A stretch of DNA of 64,000 nucleotides from Candidatus Dormiibacterota bacterium (GCA_963709585.1 CAVPXI010000006.1:224001-288000); one strand, 5' to 3'; shown: positions 244 to 9,373, counted from the stretch's first letter. Notes: generated from the letters alone by a model not told the origin. Numbers and translations are program-made.

Positions 244-1854
<1,611 letters not shown>

Positions 1855-1900
1855 GGTTCCTCCTGGTTTGATCCTCTAGCCTAGGGTTCCAGGAGCTAGT

Positions 1901-1950
1901 TTAGCACTCGGGTGGTCTGACTGCTAGCGGGTGGCAGGGGGGAGTGCTAA
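1901..1950. promoter_or_regulatory. CIRCE (HrcA operator), apparently two overlapping copies
   Basis: TTAGCACTC-N9-GACTGCTAG at 1901-1927 and CTAGCGGGT-N9-GAGTGCTAA at 1924-1950, upstream of groEL. Confidence 0.88.
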
Positions 1951-1960
1951 ACGACGGCCG

Positions 1961-1990
1961 CCGGATCGCACCACCGCTGGTGCGATCCGG
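1961..1990 (-). terminator. Perfect 13-bp hairpin downstream of the peptide gene (terminator or mRNA stabiliser)
   Basis: CCGGATCGCACCA-CCGC-TGGTGCGATCCGG; no U-tract. Confidence 0.6.
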
Positions 1991-2019
1991 AAGGGCCGCC
2001 CATTCCCTTCGGAACTCGG

Positions 2020-2208
2020 TCAGCGACCGGGGTTCTTGACGTGGCCTTCGGTGTCGTCCTCGTCAGGCGTCGCCCGAGGGAAAACCGAGGGCTGCTCGTC
2101 GGGGTCGGCGCTCCTGTTTGGGTACTTGTGTCCGGAGGTGTCCTCTTCGTCGGTCTCGTTGATCCGGACCCCCGGGGCTTCCTGCTCGTCTGCCTTGTCC
2201 GTGCTCAT
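2020..2208 (-). CDS. 62-aa acidic peptide with two DE(E/D)DT(S/E)GH repeats; putative precursor peptide
   Basis: AGGAG RBS 7 nt before ATG; internal duplication DEQ...DEEDTSGH-KYPNR / DEQ...DEDDTEGH-VKNPGR; downstream hairpin. Confidence 0.75.
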   Translation of the reverse strand: MSTDKADEQEAPGVRINETDEEDTSGHKYPNRSADPDEQPSVFPRATPDEDDTEGHVKNPGR

Positions 2209-2304
2209 TGCCTGTCTCCTGTGGCGGCTGGGCCGCTGCTGTTGTGTTGCCCACATTCTGCGGAATCGAGATGGGGGAGTCAGTCGTCCACCTGACAGCT
2301 TCCG

Positions 2305-2320
2305 TGTCGGCGATCTGACA
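2305..2320. promoter_or_regulatory. Crp/CooA-type box TGTCG-N6-TGACA upstream of the peptide gene
   Basis: TGTCG-GCGATC-TGACA; identical arms recur at 4702-4717; adjacent Crp-family gene. Confidence 0.6.
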
Positions 2321-2361
2321 CGGCGGGGCAGCGACGACAGCGCAGGGAGGAGCCGGCGAGA

Positions 2362-3057
2362 TCAGTCGTGCTGGCCTGCTCTCCGTTGCAGCAGTTCCGG
2401 CTTCCGGATCACGATGCGCCGGCCGTCCAGCTCGACATATCCCAGCCGCTCAAAGGCGTTGAGGACCTGGTTGACGCTCTGCCGCGAACCGCCAACCATG
2501 TTGGCGAGGTCCGACTGAGTCAGATGCAGGTCCAGCGCCCGCCCCCCCGGTACGGGGGTGCCGCGCTCGTCCGCGAGGCGGAGCAGCAGTTTCGCGACGC
2601 GACCGTGCAGGTCCAGGAAGACCAAGTCGGCGGCTTGGTCGGTGAGCCGGCGCACCATCGTTCCCAGCGACCGCAGGAGACGGTCGACCAGCTCGGGCGA
2701 ACCCCGAAGCGCTTCCAGCAACGCAGTTCGACTGATCAGCAACACTGTGGTGGCCTCGACCGCCGCGGCCGATGCCGACCTCAGACCGCCATCGACCGTG
2801 GGCAGCTCACCGAACACCGATGACGGTTCCAGGGTCACGAGCAGCATCTCGTCGCCGTCGGGCGAGCTCCGGTAGACCTTCACGAGGCCGGTGACGACAA
2901 CACACAGTGCGTCACCGGCGTCGTCCTCACGGAAGATGACCTCTCCGCGCGCATACGACCGCCGGACCGCTCTCTCGGCAAGCCGCTCCACGGCGTCCGG
3001 CGGAAGCGTCCCAAAGAGGGAGGTGTTCTGCAGGAGCGCCTCATCGCCGCTGGTCAT
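2362..3057 (-). CDS. Crp/Fnr-family transcriptional regulator
   Basis: cNMP pocket FGELPTVDGGLRSASA; HTH LTQSDLANMVGGSRQSVNQ; GGAGG RBS. Confidence 0.95.
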   Translation of the reverse strand: MTSGDEALLQNTSLFGTLPPDAVERLAERAVRRSYARGEVIFREDDAGDALCVVVTGLVKVYRSSPDGDEMLLVTLEPSSVFGELPTVDGGLRSASAAAVEATTVLLISRTALLEALRGSPELVDRLLRSLGTMVRRLTDQAADLVFLDLHGRVAKLLLRLADERGTPVPGGRALDLHLTQSDLANMVGGSRQSVNQVLNAFERLGYVELDGRRIVIRKPELLQRRAGQHD

Positions 3058-3133
3058 TCGACGTGCCTCCCTGGGCGTCACGTTTACAGGCGCGCTCCGA
3101 CGGCGCCGGCGAATTGTAGAGTGCCGGAACACC

Positions 3134-3883
3134 ATGGGTGATCGCGATTCGACGAGAGACGTGCTGGCAGATCTGACACAGCTCGCGGCCGACCTCGGCC
3201 CGGTGCTCCGCCCCCGCCGCGACGAGGAGTTTCTGCAGGCAATCGTCGAAACCGCGCGCCTCGTCTTCGACGCAGCGGCCTGCTCGATCGCGCTCTTCGA
3301 CGAGCGCGAGGAGGAACTCGAGTTCCGTGTCGCCGCTGGGAGTGGCGCCGAGGCGACCATCGGCCTGCGTATCCCCGCAGATCGCGGGATCGCGGGCTGG
3401 GCGCTCATGTCCGGACAGTCGATCGCCGTCGACGACGTCCGCCAGGATCCCCGCTTCGCCGCGGATGTCGCCGAGCGCACCGGCTACGTGCCCAACGCGA
3501 TCATGGCCATGCCGCTGGAGAGCGATCGTCAGACCTTCGGCGTTATCGAGGTGCTCGACCGTCAGCGGGGTGGCGGCGAAGGCGTCGACGACATGGAGTT
3601 GCTCGCCTTGTTCGCCCGACAAGCGACCCTTGCGGTCGAGACATCGCGGATCTTCTCGGGCCTCGGACAGGCGATCCTCGAGTCGGCCGCGCTCGCGACC
3701 CAGCGAGACGACCTTCGCCTCGCCCTTGAGCAGCGAGCCGCTCAGGCACCGCGACCCCAGGCGGAGCTTGCCGAACTCGCGCTGCTCTTTCACGATCTCG
3801 GCGTCCTCGGGCCCGAGGAACGGCGTGTCGCAGCCCGCATTGCAGACGACTTTCTCGCATACGCACGCAAGCAGCGCCGGTGA
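3134..3883 (+). CDS. GAF domain protein
   Basis: AACSIALFD...GIAGW...VDDVRQDPRF...MAMPL...GVIEVLDR; stop overlaps the S8 start (GTGA). Confidence 0.9.
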   Translation: MGDRDSTRDVLADLTQLAADLGPVLRPRRDEEFLQAIVETARLVFDAAACSIALFDEREEELEFRVAAGSGAEATIGLRIPADRGIAGWALMSGQSIAVDDVRQDPRFAADVAERTGYVPNAIMAMPLESDRQTFGVIEVLDRQRGGGEGVDDMELLALFARQATLAVETSRIFSGLGQAILESAALATQRDDLRLALEQRAAQAPRPQAELAELALLFHDLGVLGPEERRVAARIADDFLAYARKQRR

Positions 3884-4686
3884 AGCCGGCCTGGGCGTGG
3901 CAGTTCGACCCGGCGACCCTGCAGCGAGTGCGGGCGTCGCTCCCATCGGCGATCTCACGTGAGTGGGCGTGGGAGGGGAGCACCGGGGCAGGCGTCAAGG
4001 TGGCGGTCATTGACAGCGGGATCGATGCTGCTTATCCCGGAGTCGGGCCCCTCGCCGGTGGTGCGGTCGTCGTTGCCGATGCCGACGCGCCGCGAGGCGC
4101 TCGTGTTATCGAGGGGCCGCACGAGGATCTCTTCGGCCACGGCACGGCGTGTGCCGCGATCATTCGCCAGGCCGCGCCTGATGCCGAGCTGTACAGCATC
4201 AGGGTCCTTGGCGAACGGCTGACGGGACGCGGCATCGTGTTCGCCGAGGGCATGCGCTGGGCGCTCGCTGAAGGCATGCAGGTGCTCAACATGAGTCTGA
4301 GCACGTCGCGCGCAGACTACTTCGGGGTGTTCCACGAGATCGCCGACGACGCCTATTTCCAGGGAGCGATGGTCGTGTGCGCCGTCAACAACGTCCGCGC
4401 GCCAAGCTATCCGTCGCAGTACGCGTCGGTGTTTTCCGTCGCCGCTCACGAGGGACGGGATCCATTTCGCCTCGACTACAACCTCTCGCCACCGGTTGAA
4501 TTCGGAGCGCCTGGGATCGACCTCGAGGTCGGCTGGCTCGGCGGGAGGACCATTCGCGCGACCGGCAACAGCTTCGCGGCGCCGCACATCGCCGGATTGA
4601 TCGCTCGCATCCTCGGCAAGCATCCGGCGCTGACTCCGTTTCAGATGAAGACGGTCCTGATGGCGCTGGCGGACAACGCCTCGTAG
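3880..4686 (+). CDS. S8 (subtilisin-like) serine peptidase, no signal peptide
   Basis: Triad motifs VAVIDSG, GHGTACA, GNSFAAPHIAG. Confidence 0.95.
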   Translation: MKPAWAWQFDPATLQRVRASLPSAISREWAWEGSTGAGVKVAVIDSGIDAAYPGVGPLAGGAVVVADADAPRGARVIEGPHEDLFGHGTACAAIIRQAAPDAELYSIRVLGERLTGRGIVFAEGMRWALAEGMQVLNMSLSTSRADYFGVFHEIADDAYFQGAMVVCAVNNVRAPSYPSQYASVFSVAAHEGRDPFRLDYNLSPPVEFGAPGIDLEVGWLGGRTIRATGNSFAAPHIAGLIARILGKHPALTPFQMKTVLMALADNAS

Positions 4687-4701: not shown

Positions 4702-4717
4702 TGTCGCTCTGCTGACA
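4702..4717. promoter_or_regulatory. Second TGTCG-N6-TGACA box, upstream of the cNMP-binding gene
   Basis: TGTCG-CTCTGC-TGACA in a 57-nt intergenic gap. Confidence 0.6.
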
Positions 4718-4743: not shown

Positions 4744-5178
4744 ATGCGAGACATGACTGACAAGAAAACGCTGGTCAACCTGCTGAGTCGCAATCAACTC
4801 TTCGACGAGCTGAACAAGAAGGATGTCCTCGCGCTGATCAACTCGGCGAAGGAAGTTGACCACCGCGAGGGTCAGATGATCGTGGTCGAGGGGCATCCCG
4901 GAGTCGGTTTTCATCTGCTTCTTCAGGGCACCGCGATCGTGAGCAGAAATGGCCGAAAGCTCCGGACGCTGGGGCCTGGCGAGACGTTCGGCGATATCGC
5001 GGTCATCGACGGAGGACCTCGCAGTGCGTCGGTGCAAGCAGCGACCGCGCTCCGCACCCTGTCTCTGCCGCCATGGGAGTTCAAACCTCTGCTCCTGGAG
5101 CACCCGCGGATCGCCTACAGGCTGCTCGTCAAGCTCTGCACGCTGCTCCGAGAGGCCGAGAAGCGGCCGCCGCTCTAG
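4744..5178 (+). CDS. Stand-alone cyclic nucleotide-binding protein
   Basis: GQMIVVEG, LGPGETFGDIAVIDGGPRSASV. Confidence 0.9.
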   Translation: MRDMTDKKTLVNLLSRNQLFDELNKKDVLALINSAKEVDHREGQMIVVEGHPGVGFHLLLQGTAIVSRNGRKLRTLGPGETFGDIAVIDGGPRSASVQAATALRTLSLPPWEFKPLLLEHPRIAYRLLVKLCTLLREAEKRPPL

Positions 5179-5219: not shown

Positions 5220-8200
5220 TCAGGCACGCGCTTGTTGAGCCTCGGCCGCCGCTCCGGCGTCGAGCATGAGGGCGTCAACACGTTCGATCCACGGCGCGGC
5301 GGCGAGTTCGACGAATGACGTCCGCGCGGGTACGAACAACGCTTCGGCCTCGCCGCGCCGGCCACGATGCACGAGTGTGTCGCCGAGTTCCAATCGTGAG
5401 ACGGCGACCCAGAACGGCATCTGCCGCTGCTGAAACGCTGCGATCGCAGCGAGCGATTCTCGCATCGCGTCCTCTTCACGTCCCTCGAGCTCATCGAGGC
5501 GCGCGCGGAACCGCAGGATATGGGCATGCACGATCGGCCACACCGCGAGCGGGAAGCGTTCGGTTACCGCCTCGAGTAGCCGGCGTACCATCTTGAGGTC
5601 GCCCACGGCGAAAGCGGCTTCCACCGCCTCGACGATCGCCCAGCGCGAACCGTCGACAAAGTCCGAGGCGCCGCTGAAACGCTTTACGACGTCACCCATC
5701 AGCGCAAGGGCTTCACCGCTGCGCCCTTGCGCGCGGAGAATCGCGGAGCTCGCGGCGTCATGCGAGAGTTGATACTCGGGTCCCGCTCGCGCGCAGATGT
5801 CGGCCAAACGCTCGACGAGCCTGCGCGCATCGGGCTCCTCCCCGCGCCACACGTGGGGCCACGCCGCGAAGACCAGCTCGGCTCCGAGCAGCAAGTCCAC
5901 CACCACCACTTCTTTGGCAAGCAAGTCGGCCACCACGCCGCTGGCTTCATCCCAACGACCGAGGTCCACCAGCACGGGTATCCGCCCGATGAGAAATTGG
6001 ATCTCGTCTCGACGCAGTCCCATCAACCGTGCGAGGTCGAGCGCTGCGGCGGTGTATTCTGCCGCGCGCGCGGGTTCGAAACCCTGTAAAGAGGCAGCCA
6101 GGTTGTTATACGCACGCAACGCCGCTCCGTGAAGATCCGACGCAAGAGCCTGGTCGAGCGCACACGTCAGCAGGGCACGCGCCTCCTCGTGCCGTCCGCG
6201 ACCGCCGAGGATGAGTTCCTTGGTATTGACCGCCTGGCAGAACACCTGCGCATGTCCGTGTCGCTCGGCGAAGTCCAGGGCAAGTTCGACCCGCTCCATG
6301 GCGACGACGCCGCTGCGGCCGGACAGAACCATCCGGCGCGCGACCTCCGCCGCGACCACCGCCAGGTCCTCCTCGTGGTTGGCATCGCCAAACTCCACCG
6401 CGCTGAGCTCAACGAACGCGCGCTCCATCCGATCCGCGGCTTGGTCACGCTTCAATTCGTGAGCATCGATTTCGGCCAGGGTGATCGATGTCCGAGCAGC
6501 CGCGCCGAGACGACCGGCCGCCGCGTGCAGCGCAACCGCCTCGTCGAGATGCCGCCTGGCCTTTTGTGCATGGACCTGCTGCCACGCCATCTGTCCGGCG
6601 CGAGCGTGCAGCGTGGCCAGGTCAGCGGCGTCAGCGAGCTCAAGCGCACGTTCGTAGTAGTGCTCGGCGGACGCGGCGGCAGCGAGCGATGCTGCATGGT
6701 CGCCTGCTCGCACCAGCGCATCACGTGCACGCTGGCGGAGTCCCCCTGCGTCGAGGGCATCAACGTCAGCCTCGAACGCCTCGAGGAGGTGCGAGGCGAT
6801 GACTTCGGCAACTCCTTCCTCCTCGCTCCACGCGCTCTCCAGGTATGCGGCCGCGCTCAGGTGGCGCACCTTGCGATCGCGTCGGGACAGTGTCCCGTAC
6901 GCGACGCTCCGCACCAGGTCTTGCACAAAGACATACTGGCCGCGCTCGGGTGATCTCGGGTCCGACTGGATGGCAAGCAGATCTTTGCTGACCAGCGTGG
7001 CGAGGCCCGGCTCGACTGTGTCCGTCGCGAGCGCCGTGACCGCCCGCAGCCCTGCGGCGGTAAAGGATTTGCCGAGGACCGCCGCATCCTGCAACAGCTG
7101 ACGCTCGGCACCACCGATGCTGTCCAGCCGTGCGGCGATCAGAGCGTGGAGGGTCTCGGGGACCTCCAGCGAGTTCGAGCGATCCCTCGACGTGGAACGT
7201 GCCGCCCCTCGCGACGAGGAGGCCGCGGTCCATCAGCATCCGCACCGTTTCGACTGCGTAGAGAGGCACGCCCGCGGCGCGCTCGAGAATGCGCGCGCTC
7301 AGGTCGTCGGGAAGGCCTGGTGCCATGCCGGCCAGCAGCTGCGACATGGCCTCAGGCGGAAGCGGATCCAGAGAGAGCGAGGTGGACCCTCGCTTGCCCG
7401 TGCCCCAACCTGAACGACGATCGGCCATCTCCGGGCGCGCCAGCGTGATCACAAGGATCGGGGAGTTGCGCGACCACTCGAGGAGGTATTCGATGAAGTC
7501 AAGCAGACCGCTATCGGCCCATTGCAGATCCTCGAACACAAGGACGGTGAGGTTCTCTGCAGCGAGGCGCTCGAAGAAGAAGCGCCACGCCGCGTAGAGA
7601 TCGCGCGGATCCGTGGCGACGCGCTCCTCGAGACCGACGAGGTGCGCGAGGCGGGGTTCCACCCACCGCCGCTCCTCACCCGGCTCGACGAATTCCTCGA
7701 CGGTACGCCGCAACTTCTCACGCGCCAACTCCGGTGGCTCGTTGTCGAGAATGCCGGCACGCATACGCACCATCTCGCTCAGCGCCCAGTAGGCGACACC
7801 ATCTCCGTAGGCGAGACAGCGCCCGCGATGCCACCAGATGGGTTCCGTGACCCCGTCGACGTACTTGAAGAACTCCCAACCGAGGCGCGACTTCCCGACG
7901 CCGGCAAGGCCGACGATCGAGAGCAGGCGCGCCGTGCGCTCCTCGCCGGTCGCGTGCAGGAACTCCTTGATCAGTCGCAACTCCCGGTCGCGTCCGACGA
8001 ACGGCGGTTCCAGTCCGGTCGGGCGGAGCGCCCCTCCGGCCGCCGCAACGACGCGTTGCGCTCGCCACAGACGCTCCGGTTCAGGCTTTCCCTTGAGCTC
8101 GTGCACCCCAGTGTCCTCGTAAGCGATCGCGGCTTCCGTGGCGACGCGAGTCCCGTCACCGACATAGACAGCTCCGGGCTCAGCCGCTGCCTGCACGCGA

Positions 8201-8799
8201 GATGCAGTGTTGATGAGGTCGCCGGCGACCATCCCCTCGCCTCTCACTCCGACGCTGACCGCGACTTCGCCGGTCATCAGCCCCGCTCGGGCCTGCAGAC
8301 CGGCCGCACCGACCTCGTCGCCAAATGCGACGACGGCATCGACCAGCTCGAGCGCTGCGCGCACCGCTCGCTCGGCGTCGTTTTCTTGACTGGTGGGCAC
8401 GCCCCACACGGCCATGACAGCGTCGCCGATGAACTTTTCAACCTGGCCACCGTAGCGAGCGATGATCGTGCGCGCGGTGTCGAAGTAGCGACTCAGGAGT
8501 TCGCGGACGTCCTCAGCGTCGCGCTGCTGAGAGAGTGGTGTGAATCCCACCAGGTCGGCAAACAGCACGGTCACATGGCGGCGTTCGGTGAGACGCGCCG
8601 GCTCGATATGGGCTGGCGCAGATGAGGGGCTCGTCCGCGAGGGTTCCGCCGACAGCTGTGCGCCGCACCCGCCGCAAAAACGCTCGTCCTCGTCGTTCGG
8701 CGCCCCGCAGGCGGGGCAAGGCCGGTCCAGAGAGGAGCCACATTGGCCGCAAAAGCGCCGGCCCGCCCGGTTTGCGGAACCGCAGGCGGTGCAGGTCAT
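5220..8799 (-). CDS. Double zinc-ribbon / class III adenylate cyclase / STAND AAA ATPase / TPR protein; apparent +1 frameshift at about 7173, probably a sequencing error
   Basis: Four CxxC; FADLVGFT, EKFIGDAV, GDLINTASR; GLAGVGKS, VFEDLQWAD; removing one base gives SLDSLEVPETLHALIAARLD, continuing into ORF 5220-7094. Confidence 0.9.
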
Positions 8800-8947: not shown

Positions 8948-9373
8948 ATGACAAGTCGGAGCGCGCAGGTCAACTTGCTCAGCGGGGTCGCGCTCTTCGC
9001 CGGGCTGACCAAGAAGGAGGCCGGGTTCGTGCTCCAATTCATGCGCGATCATGACTATCCGGCTGGGAAGGTCATTGTCGAAGAGGGCGAGATGGGTGGC
9101 CGTTTCTTTCTCATCGTCTCGGGCACCGCAGTGGTAACGCGACGCGGACGTCGTATTCGCAGACTGGGTCCTGGCGATTCGTTCGGAGACATCGCGCTCA
9201 TCGATGGAGGTCCACGATCAGCGACGGTGGCGGCGGAAACACCCGTCAGTACGTTGTCGCTGGCAGTCTGGAATTTCAAGGCAACGCTGCTCGAGAGTCC
9301 GAGCATCACCTACAAGCTGCTGCTGGCCCTTTGCAGAAGACTGCGTGATGCGGAGTCGCGCGCGCCGATCTGA
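8948..9373 (+). CDS. Second stand-alone cyclic nucleotide-binding protein
   Basis: LGPGDSFGDIALIDGGPRSATV; paralogue of 4744-5178. Confidence 0.9.
   Translation: MTSRSAQVNLLSGVALFAGLTKKEAGFVLQFMRDHDYPAGKVIVEEGEMGGRFFLIVSGTAVVTRRGRRIRRLGPGDSFGDIALIDGGPRSATVAAETPVSTLSLAVWNFKATLLESPSITYKLLLALCRRLRDAESRAPI

Follow-up and report, generated by a model that had tools for sequence, protein, structure and literature searches.

The locus studied here raises the question of what a bacterium makes from a very small gene in which nearly the same acidic segment is encoded twice. The gene lies on the minus strand (2020..2208, read from 2208 down to 2020) of a 64,000-nucleotide stretch of a Candidatus Dormiibacterota genome, hereafter the window; it starts with ATG and encodes 62 amino acids plus a stop. 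An earlier note had singled out this open reading frame (ORF) for its strong ribosome-binding site, a perfect 13-bp hairpin on its 3' side and two acidic cassettes, each with a short basic segment after it, and all of these features were borne out. The encoded mini-protein (MSTDKADEQEAPGVRINETDEEDTSGHKYPNRSADPDEQPSVFPRATPDEDDTEGHVKNPGR, MSTD...NPGR) carries cassette 1 at residues 7-27 (DEQ...DEEDTSGH), followed by KYPNR, and cassette 2 at residues 37-56 (DEQ...DEDDTEGH), followed by a six-residue C-terminal tail, VKNPGR. The two motifs, DEEDTSGH (residues 20-27) and DEDDTEGH (residues 49-56), are encoded at 2128..2151 and 2041..2064, both on the minus strand. The protein is acidic and strongly hydrophilic (pI 4.3, GRAVY -1.69), with 17 Asp + Glu, 7 Lys + Arg, 2 His, 7 Pro and neither Cys nor Trp. 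No signal peptide was apparent on inspection, the N-terminus (MSTDKADEQEAPG) being acidic and free of any hydrophobic stretch.

The ribosome-binding site AGGAGA (2215..2220, minus strand) stands 6 nt before the ATG. The stem-loop (1961..1990, minus strand; arms CCGGAUCGCACCA/UGGUGCGAUCCGG, 4-nt loop) lies 30 nt past the stop and is terminator-like, with a weak U-tract after it; its 96-nt context folded at -49.4 kcal/mol against -37.0 ± 3.2 for shuffled sequences (z = -3.85). It separates the mini-protein gene from the control region of groEL. The G+C content at third and second codon positions (GC3 0.81 vs GC2 0.49) resembled that of the neighboring genes. A longer, 78-amino-acid version from an upstream ATG was rejected as the gene because homologues begin at MSTD or MTTD. 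A search of Rfam at the gene returned nothing above threshold, with sX13 as a sub-threshold row (23.5 vs 50 bits). The same ORF had been expected to escape annotation; one homologue, in a Candidatus Dormiibacterota metagenome-assembled genome (MAG), does carry an NCBI name, "hypothetical protein."

Relatives of the mini-protein were recovered from protein and genome collections. A word-indexed search of 5.8 billion proteins gave 13 matches at E ≤ 0.01, and an exhaustive profile search of 1.84 billion cluster representatives gave 39 at E ≤ 0.001, 15 of them at E ≤ 1e-10. A Dormibacterota-type profile matched 2 of 301 species genomes in a phylum-wide sample, 23 of 117 genomes of the family, and 20 of 41 genomes of the genus, the window's own genome excluded. 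A metagenome scan confirmed 24 loci from 184 pattern matches. The genome-collection scan, of one genome per species, was run with the narrower alignment A3, as the wide alignment A2 was too diverse, and confirmed 50 of 150 stretches, corresponding to 46 loci. The loci from the scans encode small proteins with 2 to 8 tandem units, and their MAG titles are mostly Candidatus Limnocylindria or Chloroflexota, with Dormibacterota, Actinomycetota and a few other bins also represented. In total, 118 distinct repeat proteins with 436 motif units were gathered.

What stayed constant across the family was D-[T/V]-E-G-H alone, as a rule preceded by acidic residues and followed by basic or hydrophobic ones. 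Counting back from the His as position 1, position 5 was Asp in 96% of the 436 units, position 4 was Thr in 72% and Val in 24%, and position 3 was Glu in 94%, with Gly-His next; as the search pattern fixed Gly-His and limited positions 3 to 5 to small residue sets, the result lies in the skew within the allowed sets. Positions 6 to 8 were mainly Asp or Glu, and the three residues past the motif His leaned to [RKV][FRK][TR]. The unit period had modes at 15-16 and at about 32 residues; in Dormibacterota, a 32-residue unit resembles a pair of 16-residue units, one of them decayed to DPDFG. In 85 of the 118 proteins, the end of the protein came 3 to 6 residues past the last Gly-His. We defined the family by at least two copies of D-[T/V]-E-G-H (Ser tolerated at the Glu), acidic residues before them, and a small disordered protein that ends a few residues past the last motif; the window protein, with DTSGH, DTEGH and its six-residue tail, belongs to it. 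Across 285 distinct motif instances, every synonymous codon was used at the fixed motif residues, and selection therefore acts on the protein.

Within the genus, conservation was highest in the N-terminal 15 residues, and the number of cassettes varied from 1 to 4. The Dormibacterota leader reads MSTD(K/E)x(D/N)EQEAPG. Proteins with Limnocylindria titles (L052, L047, P0051 and relatives) have a different conserved N-terminal segment, RRRPPMEGFSRPG(S/Q)LGGEA. The leaders are thus lineage-specific, while the motif is constant across lineages. The reading frame was intact in all relatives, and contigs from three runs labeled RNA-Seq (X1 and X2, which are probably DNA, and X3, for which RNA is an unconfirmed guess) showed relatives with in-frame differences. 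Gap placement was noisy when indel lengths of relatives were compared by blastn. The earlier note had made its proposal depend on the ORF being conserved, and here homologues were found at the protein level, with the motif kept through synonymous changes. It had also asked whether the motif would be conserved while the cores vary. The first half of that expectation held, as did a difference in tails between lineages; hypervariability did not, as the residues after the putative cut follow the soft consensus given above.

Neither Pfam nor NCBIfam had a family for the window mini-protein, and NCBIfam gave no match above cutoff for seven distant repeat proteins (a faint sub-threshold row, SCO2322, reached 13.1 vs 85 bits). 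PADLOC had no model for the window mini-protein or for the repeat protein of locus L049. The top ESM Atlas scores, 0.83, were for unnamed clusters with few members on record, which are Chloroflexota; we take this as a lead only.

What surrounds the gene? Directly upstream, 154 nt away and on the same strand, is a gene for a Crp/FNR-family regulator with cNMP_binding and HTH_Crp_2 domains (2362..3057, minus strand). The other genes of the module diverge from this pair. The first, 0.9 kb from the mini-protein gene, encodes a 249-amino-acid GAF-domain protein (3134..3883, plus strand). In a structure model of this protein, the GAF domain lies between an N-terminal helix and a C-terminal region made up of four helices. 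Among solved structures, the GAF domains closest to it were those of adenylate cyclase 1ykd and phosphodiesterases 2, 5 and 10 (cGMP/cAMP), and by similarity to GAF domains of the cyclic-nucleotide type the protein is probably a cyclic-nucleotide sensor. One GAF protein in another locus (L047:1398-2171) also matched the C-terminal part of the SpoIIE/PP2C phosphatase model (63 bits), which the other scanned GAF partners did not. The next gene in the window, 1.7 kb from the mini-protein gene, encodes a minimal, leaderless S8 peptidase of 268 amino acids (3880..4686, plus strand); its start codon is GTG, and there is a 4-nt overlap with the GAF stop.

Further cyclic-nucleotide proteins follow. 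A stand-alone cyclic-nucleotide-binding protein of 144 amino acids (4744..5178, plus strand) is succeeded by a gene on the minus strand (5220..8799) that combines a zinc ribbon, a class III nucleotide cyclase, an AAA_16/STAND ATPase and TPRs. This gene is split between two frames, 6766-8799 and 5220-7094, that overlap. The switch falls near 7160-7190; a full-length relative matches frame -1 as far as about 7189 and frame -2 starting at about 7160, and the break reflects either a frameshift or an error of assembly. A second stand-alone cyclic-nucleotide-binding protein, of 141 amino acids (8948..9373, plus strand), is encoded a short way past the cyclase gene. The island thus holds four cyclic-nucleotide-binding or GAF sensor proteins in all. 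PADLOC, applied to the neighbors, recognized no defense system and returned generic similarities (subtilase, Pycsar-type cyclase, and cyclic-nucleotide-binding parts of TIR effectors).

These neighbors recurred with the repeat gene across lineages. A repeat ORF was found in 68 of the 70 metagenome and genome-collection loci, and 36 of these had at least 2.5 kb of flank on both sides. Among the 36 well-flanked loci, tblastn placed S8, GAF and Crp within 3 kb in 30 each, and all three together in 29; the loci bear record titles of three phyla. At least one of the three partners was seen at 57 of the 68 loci. The usual order in distant loci was crp, repeat gene, GAF, S8 on one strand. The GAF and S8 frames are overlapping or directly adjacent in the window, as they are in most loci compared. 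The Dormibacterota form is distinct in having long 32-residue units, only two cassettes, a module in two divergent units and an unlinked exporter. In the genus, the S8 gene was present in 21 of 41 genomes, including all 20 genomes with the repeat gene; in the one additional genome, S8 lies about 1.6 kb from a contig end. This co-occurrence shows gain and loss of the cluster as a whole, although the genomes do not represent 20 independent events because they are kin. The S8 protease had been mentioned in the earlier note as an aside; by conserved synteny and co-occurrence it is the key partner. Synteny of this kind shows a functional link, and it is compatible with a substrate, an inhibitor or a scaffold alike. 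By comparison, groEL adjoined the repeat gene at three of 55 loci, namely the window's own locus and its two closest relatives (L001, L004 and L032), and a link to groEL or heat shock was rejected on that ground. A CIRCE-like element lies upstream of groEL in the window (1901-1950). Its left arm, TTAGCACTC, occupies 1901-1909; a degenerate arm, GACTGCTAG, comes 9 nt later, which is the canonical spacing of CIRCE arms, and a perfect arm, GAGTGCTAA, 32 nt from the left one, occupies 1942-1950.

The partners were not always in place. At 5 of the 36 well-flanked loci (L079, L081, L086, L092 and L093), tblastn gave no match above thresholds to an S8, GAF or Crp of the window type. The window's own genome holds, in addition, a paralogue of 60 amino acids (L002, at G000:C4:305778-305957; L002:1498-1680, minus strand), whose second motif has decayed to DESHTEENV and which has a DAO oxidoreductase gene on one side, unrelated genes on the other and none of the module partners beside it. 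The link is therefore not obligatory in cis. At L079 (4959-7323, an Actinomycetota MAG), the gene directly following a repeat gene of five units encodes a major facilitator (MFS) domain fused to a cyclic-nucleotide-binding domain, and within 5 kb there was no S8, GAF or Crp. The cluster at L093 (3553-7958, a Solirubrobacterales MAG) is a variant without Crp, in which the repeat gene is accompanied by a sigma-70-family factor, an M16 peptidase, DUF3307, a weak match to S8 and a GAF protein; this GAF gene was found by Pfam though it fell below the tblastn thresholds.

The S8 partner is a subtilase (peptidase family S8) with an intact Asp-His-Ser triad. It matched Pfam PF00082 at 87.6 bits against a gathering threshold of 21.8, and D45, H87, N171 (oxyanion) and S231 were invariant in 34 of 34 orthologues. 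A structure model predicted a subtilisin fold (pLDDT 87.8). The sequence is about 32% identical to subtilisin BPN', with calcium-loop-deleted variants ranking first, and neither a propeptide nor a signal sequence was seen on inspection. The best NCBIfam row was QhpE (NF049966; E = 1e-30, residues 40-262), at 106.7 bits against a cutoff of 165, followed by mycosin at 96.9 bits against 278.75, and on these scores the enzyme belongs to neither family. Mapped through the alignment to BPN', the positions that probably line the S1 pocket read Ser-Leu-Ser, Ala-Val-Asn-Asn-Val and Ser; none of them varies in the family, and none is acidic. What is presumably the equivalent of BPN' Tyr104 on this mapping is an invariant Gly.

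A shared putative regulatory signal accompanied the repeat genes. Between the crp stop and the mini-protein gene, centered about 104 nt upstream of the ATG, is a palindromic Crp/FNR-type box, TGTCGGCGATCTGACA (TGTC-N8-GACA; 2305..2320). The 64-kb window contains two exact boxes of this form, where 1.18 are expected by chance, and both lie inside the module, the second being upstream of the gene for the 144-amino-acid cyclic-nucleotide-binding protein (4702..4717). Scored against the consensus TGTCA-N6-TGACA (maximum 10), 71 of 75 distinct regions upstream of repeat genes reached at least 8, compared with 34 of 345 random chunks of the same loci. Stand-alone repeat genes also carry the box; that of the own-genome paralogue (TGTCAGATCGGCGACC, near consensus with 7 of 8 core positions) lies about 110 nt upstream of the start. 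We infer that the neighboring Crp binds the box. A scan of 1800-3300 for sigma-70 promoters returned no sites.

A putative exporter was a further recurring element. Fusions of MFS_1/MFS_3 with a cyclic-nucleotide-binding domain adjoin the module in L052, L060, L076, L084, L096 and L100, in addition to the one that directly follows the repeat gene in L079. In the window's own genome, an MFS_3::cNMP-binding fusion is unlinked to the module (C23:200612-202243 of G000; L125:1450-3225, minus strand) and adjoins genes for a TPR protein and a Lactamase_B_2 protein. A Lactamase_B_2 gene also adjoins the repeat gene in L053. The recurring nucleotide-gated pump suggests that peptides are exported, although MFS pumps usually move small molecules and not peptides of 15 to 30 residues.

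Taken together, these observations lead us to favor, with moderate confidence, the view that the 62-amino-acid protein is a ribosomally made, disordered two-cassette precursor that is processed at its motif by the coupled GAF-S8 pair under cyclic-nucleotide control and is probably exported. The Crp/FNR regulator just upstream would drive transcription of the gene from the TGTC-N8-GACA box, and the cytoplasmic S8 peptidase would be the dedicated processing enzyme, with the translationally coupled GAF protein as its probable cyclic-nucleotide-sensing partner. The D-[T/V]-E-G-H motif would serve as the recognition site of the protease. In subtilases, the four substrate residues ahead of the cut are held as a strand, and specificity is dominated by the first and fourth of them; the motif His would thus sit in the S1 pocket and the Thr or Val in the S4 pocket, even though His is unusual as a cut-site residue for subtilisins. 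On the motif and the binding rules of subtilisins, a cut after the His would release short peptides, and the short tail past the last Gly-His would leave the enzyme something to hold on the far side of the cut. The peptides would then probably be exported by the MFS_3-type cyclic-nucleotide-binding fusion, which is clustered with the module in most lineages and unlinked here, and one second messenger from the adjacent cyclase-STAND-TPR protein may gate transcription, processing and export. The product could be either the peptides ending in ...DDTEGH or the basic tails after Gly-His. Every motif, including the last, has a tail, which fits the phase proposed in the earlier note, with the tails as product. 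The peptides are probably unmodified, because no tailoring enzyme recurs: Pfam scans of the window and 20 related loci revealed no recurring radical-SAM, YcaO, ATP-grasp, lanthionine or other tailoring family, in agreement with the earlier remark that no modifying enzyme other than the S8 protease is nearby.

The same gene neighborhood would be expected if the mini-protein were instead a multivalent pseudo-substrate, inhibitor or scaffold that holds the S8 or GAF protein in check or localizes it, and synteny and co-occurrence fit this role equally well. An S8 peptidase that lacks a propeptide also needs some other form of control, and a repeat number that varies from 2 to 8 is what an avidity-type binder would display. 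We nonetheless consider such a role unlikely, as the recurring exporter, which at L079 directly follows a repeat gene that has no S8 or GAF nearby to restrain, better fits a released product, and repeat genes that stand alone retain the Crp-type box.

Distinctly unlikely, in our assessment, is an autonomous acidic, His-bearing disordered protein (a metal buffer, a chaperone or a stress hydrophilin) that is co-regulated by Crp and not processed by S8, with its place before groEL reflecting a role in stress. Asp, Glu and His are typical metal ligands, so the composition of the protein (its low pI, 17 acidic residues, one His per motif and GRAVY of -1.69) would suit such a role, as would the position of groEL immediately downstream in the window. 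That position, however, is confined to the three loci named above, whereas adjacency to S8, GAF and Crp extends across three phyla, and the hairpin separates the gene from groEL. The strictly kept Gly-His, and the Thr or Val that precedes the His by three residues (P4), suit a docking or cutting site better than a loose patch for binding metal.

The earlier note had read the protein as a classical multi-core RiPP or pheromone precursor, in which the acidic motif is the recognition sequence and the basic segment after Gly-His (KYPNR, VKNPGR) is a core that becomes modified. Much of the architecture behind that proposal stood: the cassettes are real, they number 2 to 8 in the wider family behind a leader conserved within lineages, each motif, the last included, is followed by a tail, and the tails differ between lineages while the motif stays constant. 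QhpE, the nearest named relative of the S8 enzyme, moreover matures a cross-linked peptide. The usual RiPP did not stand, as no tailoring family recurs among the neighbors, the protein has no Cys, the residues past the cut follow [RKV][FRK][TR] rather than being hypervariable, and the PatA/PatG model falls far below its cutoff on the S8 enzyme; nor did a pheromone of the Sec type, for want of a signal peptide. We regard a classical modified core as improbable and give it little credence. That the ORF arose by chance in GC-rich DNA, or is a nucleic-acid element and not a protein gene, is extremely improbable: GC-rich genomes hold many spurious ORFs, and 68 ORFs of at least 40 amino acids overlap the first 8 kb of the window, but this reading is excluded because of the conservation, with a frame intact in all relatives and synonymous changes that keep the motif, alongside the ribosome-binding site, the neighbor-like GC3 and GC2 and the absence of any Rfam match above threshold.

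We also put forward a broader proposal, tentatively and as a possibility. The module may be an undescribed peptide-signaling device, in which one second messenger (cAMP or cGMP, from the clustered cyclase-STAND-TPR sensor) switches on Crp transcription, GAF-S8 processing and MFS::cNMP export, so that the tandem-repeat precursor is diced into short peptides that differ from lineage to lineage. Uncultured Dormibacterota and Limnocylindria and soil Actinomycetota may use it as a pheromone or public-goods system, possibly through ...DDTEGH peptides that bind metal. If the preferred reading of a processed, exported precursor is correct, three abundant, mostly uncultured soil phyla would share a compact route for making peptides, in which a precursor of tandem repeats is combined with a cytoplasmic subtilase coupled to a sensor and with a pump gated by nucleotide. 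Cyclic-nucleotide control would act at transcription, processing and export together, and a GAF protein would control a protease, a case of which we found no description in the literature. Among the titles and abstract openings retrieved with the motif strings, no relevant work was found. The combined system terms led to no description of the module, and the titles and abstract openings retrieved with terms for QhpE and leader peptidases were those of general subtilase works. The proposal gives testable functions to "hypothetical" mini-proteins, and it offers a protease-site pair (T/V-E-G-H) that can be tested in heterologous hosts without culturing the organisms.

Several known systems combine a small precursor with a subtilase. 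The cyanobactin precursor PatE has a leader and several cassettes, with constant recognition sequences flanking variable segments, and is clustered with a dedicated S8 protease, PatA/PatG. The module described here, judged by its sequence features, shares the leader and cassettes, the constant motif flanking variable segments and the S8 gene in the cluster. It differs in having no heterocyclase, no macrocyclase domain and no PatA/PatG C-terminal domain: the PatA/PatG model (TIGR03895) scored 12.3 bits on the S8 enzyme against a cutoff of 421.05, and Pfam showed no YcaO-type heterocyclase or other tailoring enzyme in the window or in the 20 related loci scanned. The S8 enzyme here is, in addition, a bare catalytic domain of 268 amino acids with a GAF partner, wired to cyclic-nucleotide regulators.

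QhpE is a short, cytoplasmic, propeptide-less subtilase that matures a dedicated ribosomal product, the QhpC subunit of quinohemoprotein amine dehydrogenase. It provides the best NCBIfam match to the S8 enzyme, but one that stays below the 165-bit equivalog cutoff; neither a radical-SAM QhpD nor a Cys-rich peptide like QhpC was present in the neighborhood, and the putative substrate here is an acidic tandem repeat without Cys. In Kex2/furin-type (S8B) processing, a subtilase cuts precursors built of tandem units (yeast alpha-factor, fungal ustiloxin-type) at a short site that does not vary, so that many copies of one small peptide result. The tandem units and short constant site of the present precursor are alike. 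Those systems, however, are eukaryotic and use the secretory pathway and dibasic sites, whereas the site here would be acidic with Gly-His, and the enzyme a cytoplasmic one of the subtilisin BPN' type (about 32% identity) under putative cyclic-nucleotide control. The Phr-type peptides of Bacillus come from small precursors that are cut by subtilisin, Epr and Vpr to short, unmodified signaling peptides; these precursors have Sec signal peptides, are cut outside the cell and are encoded next to a Rap receptor gene. In the present case, by contrast, no signal peptide was apparent on inspection, the protease is predicted to be intracellular, and the putative exporter is an MFS::cNMP-binding fusion. 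The testable features thus appear to place the module outside the cyanobactin, QhpE and Phr systems; in logic, these three, with QhpE taken together with QhpC, and the Kex2-type precursors are its closest known counterparts.
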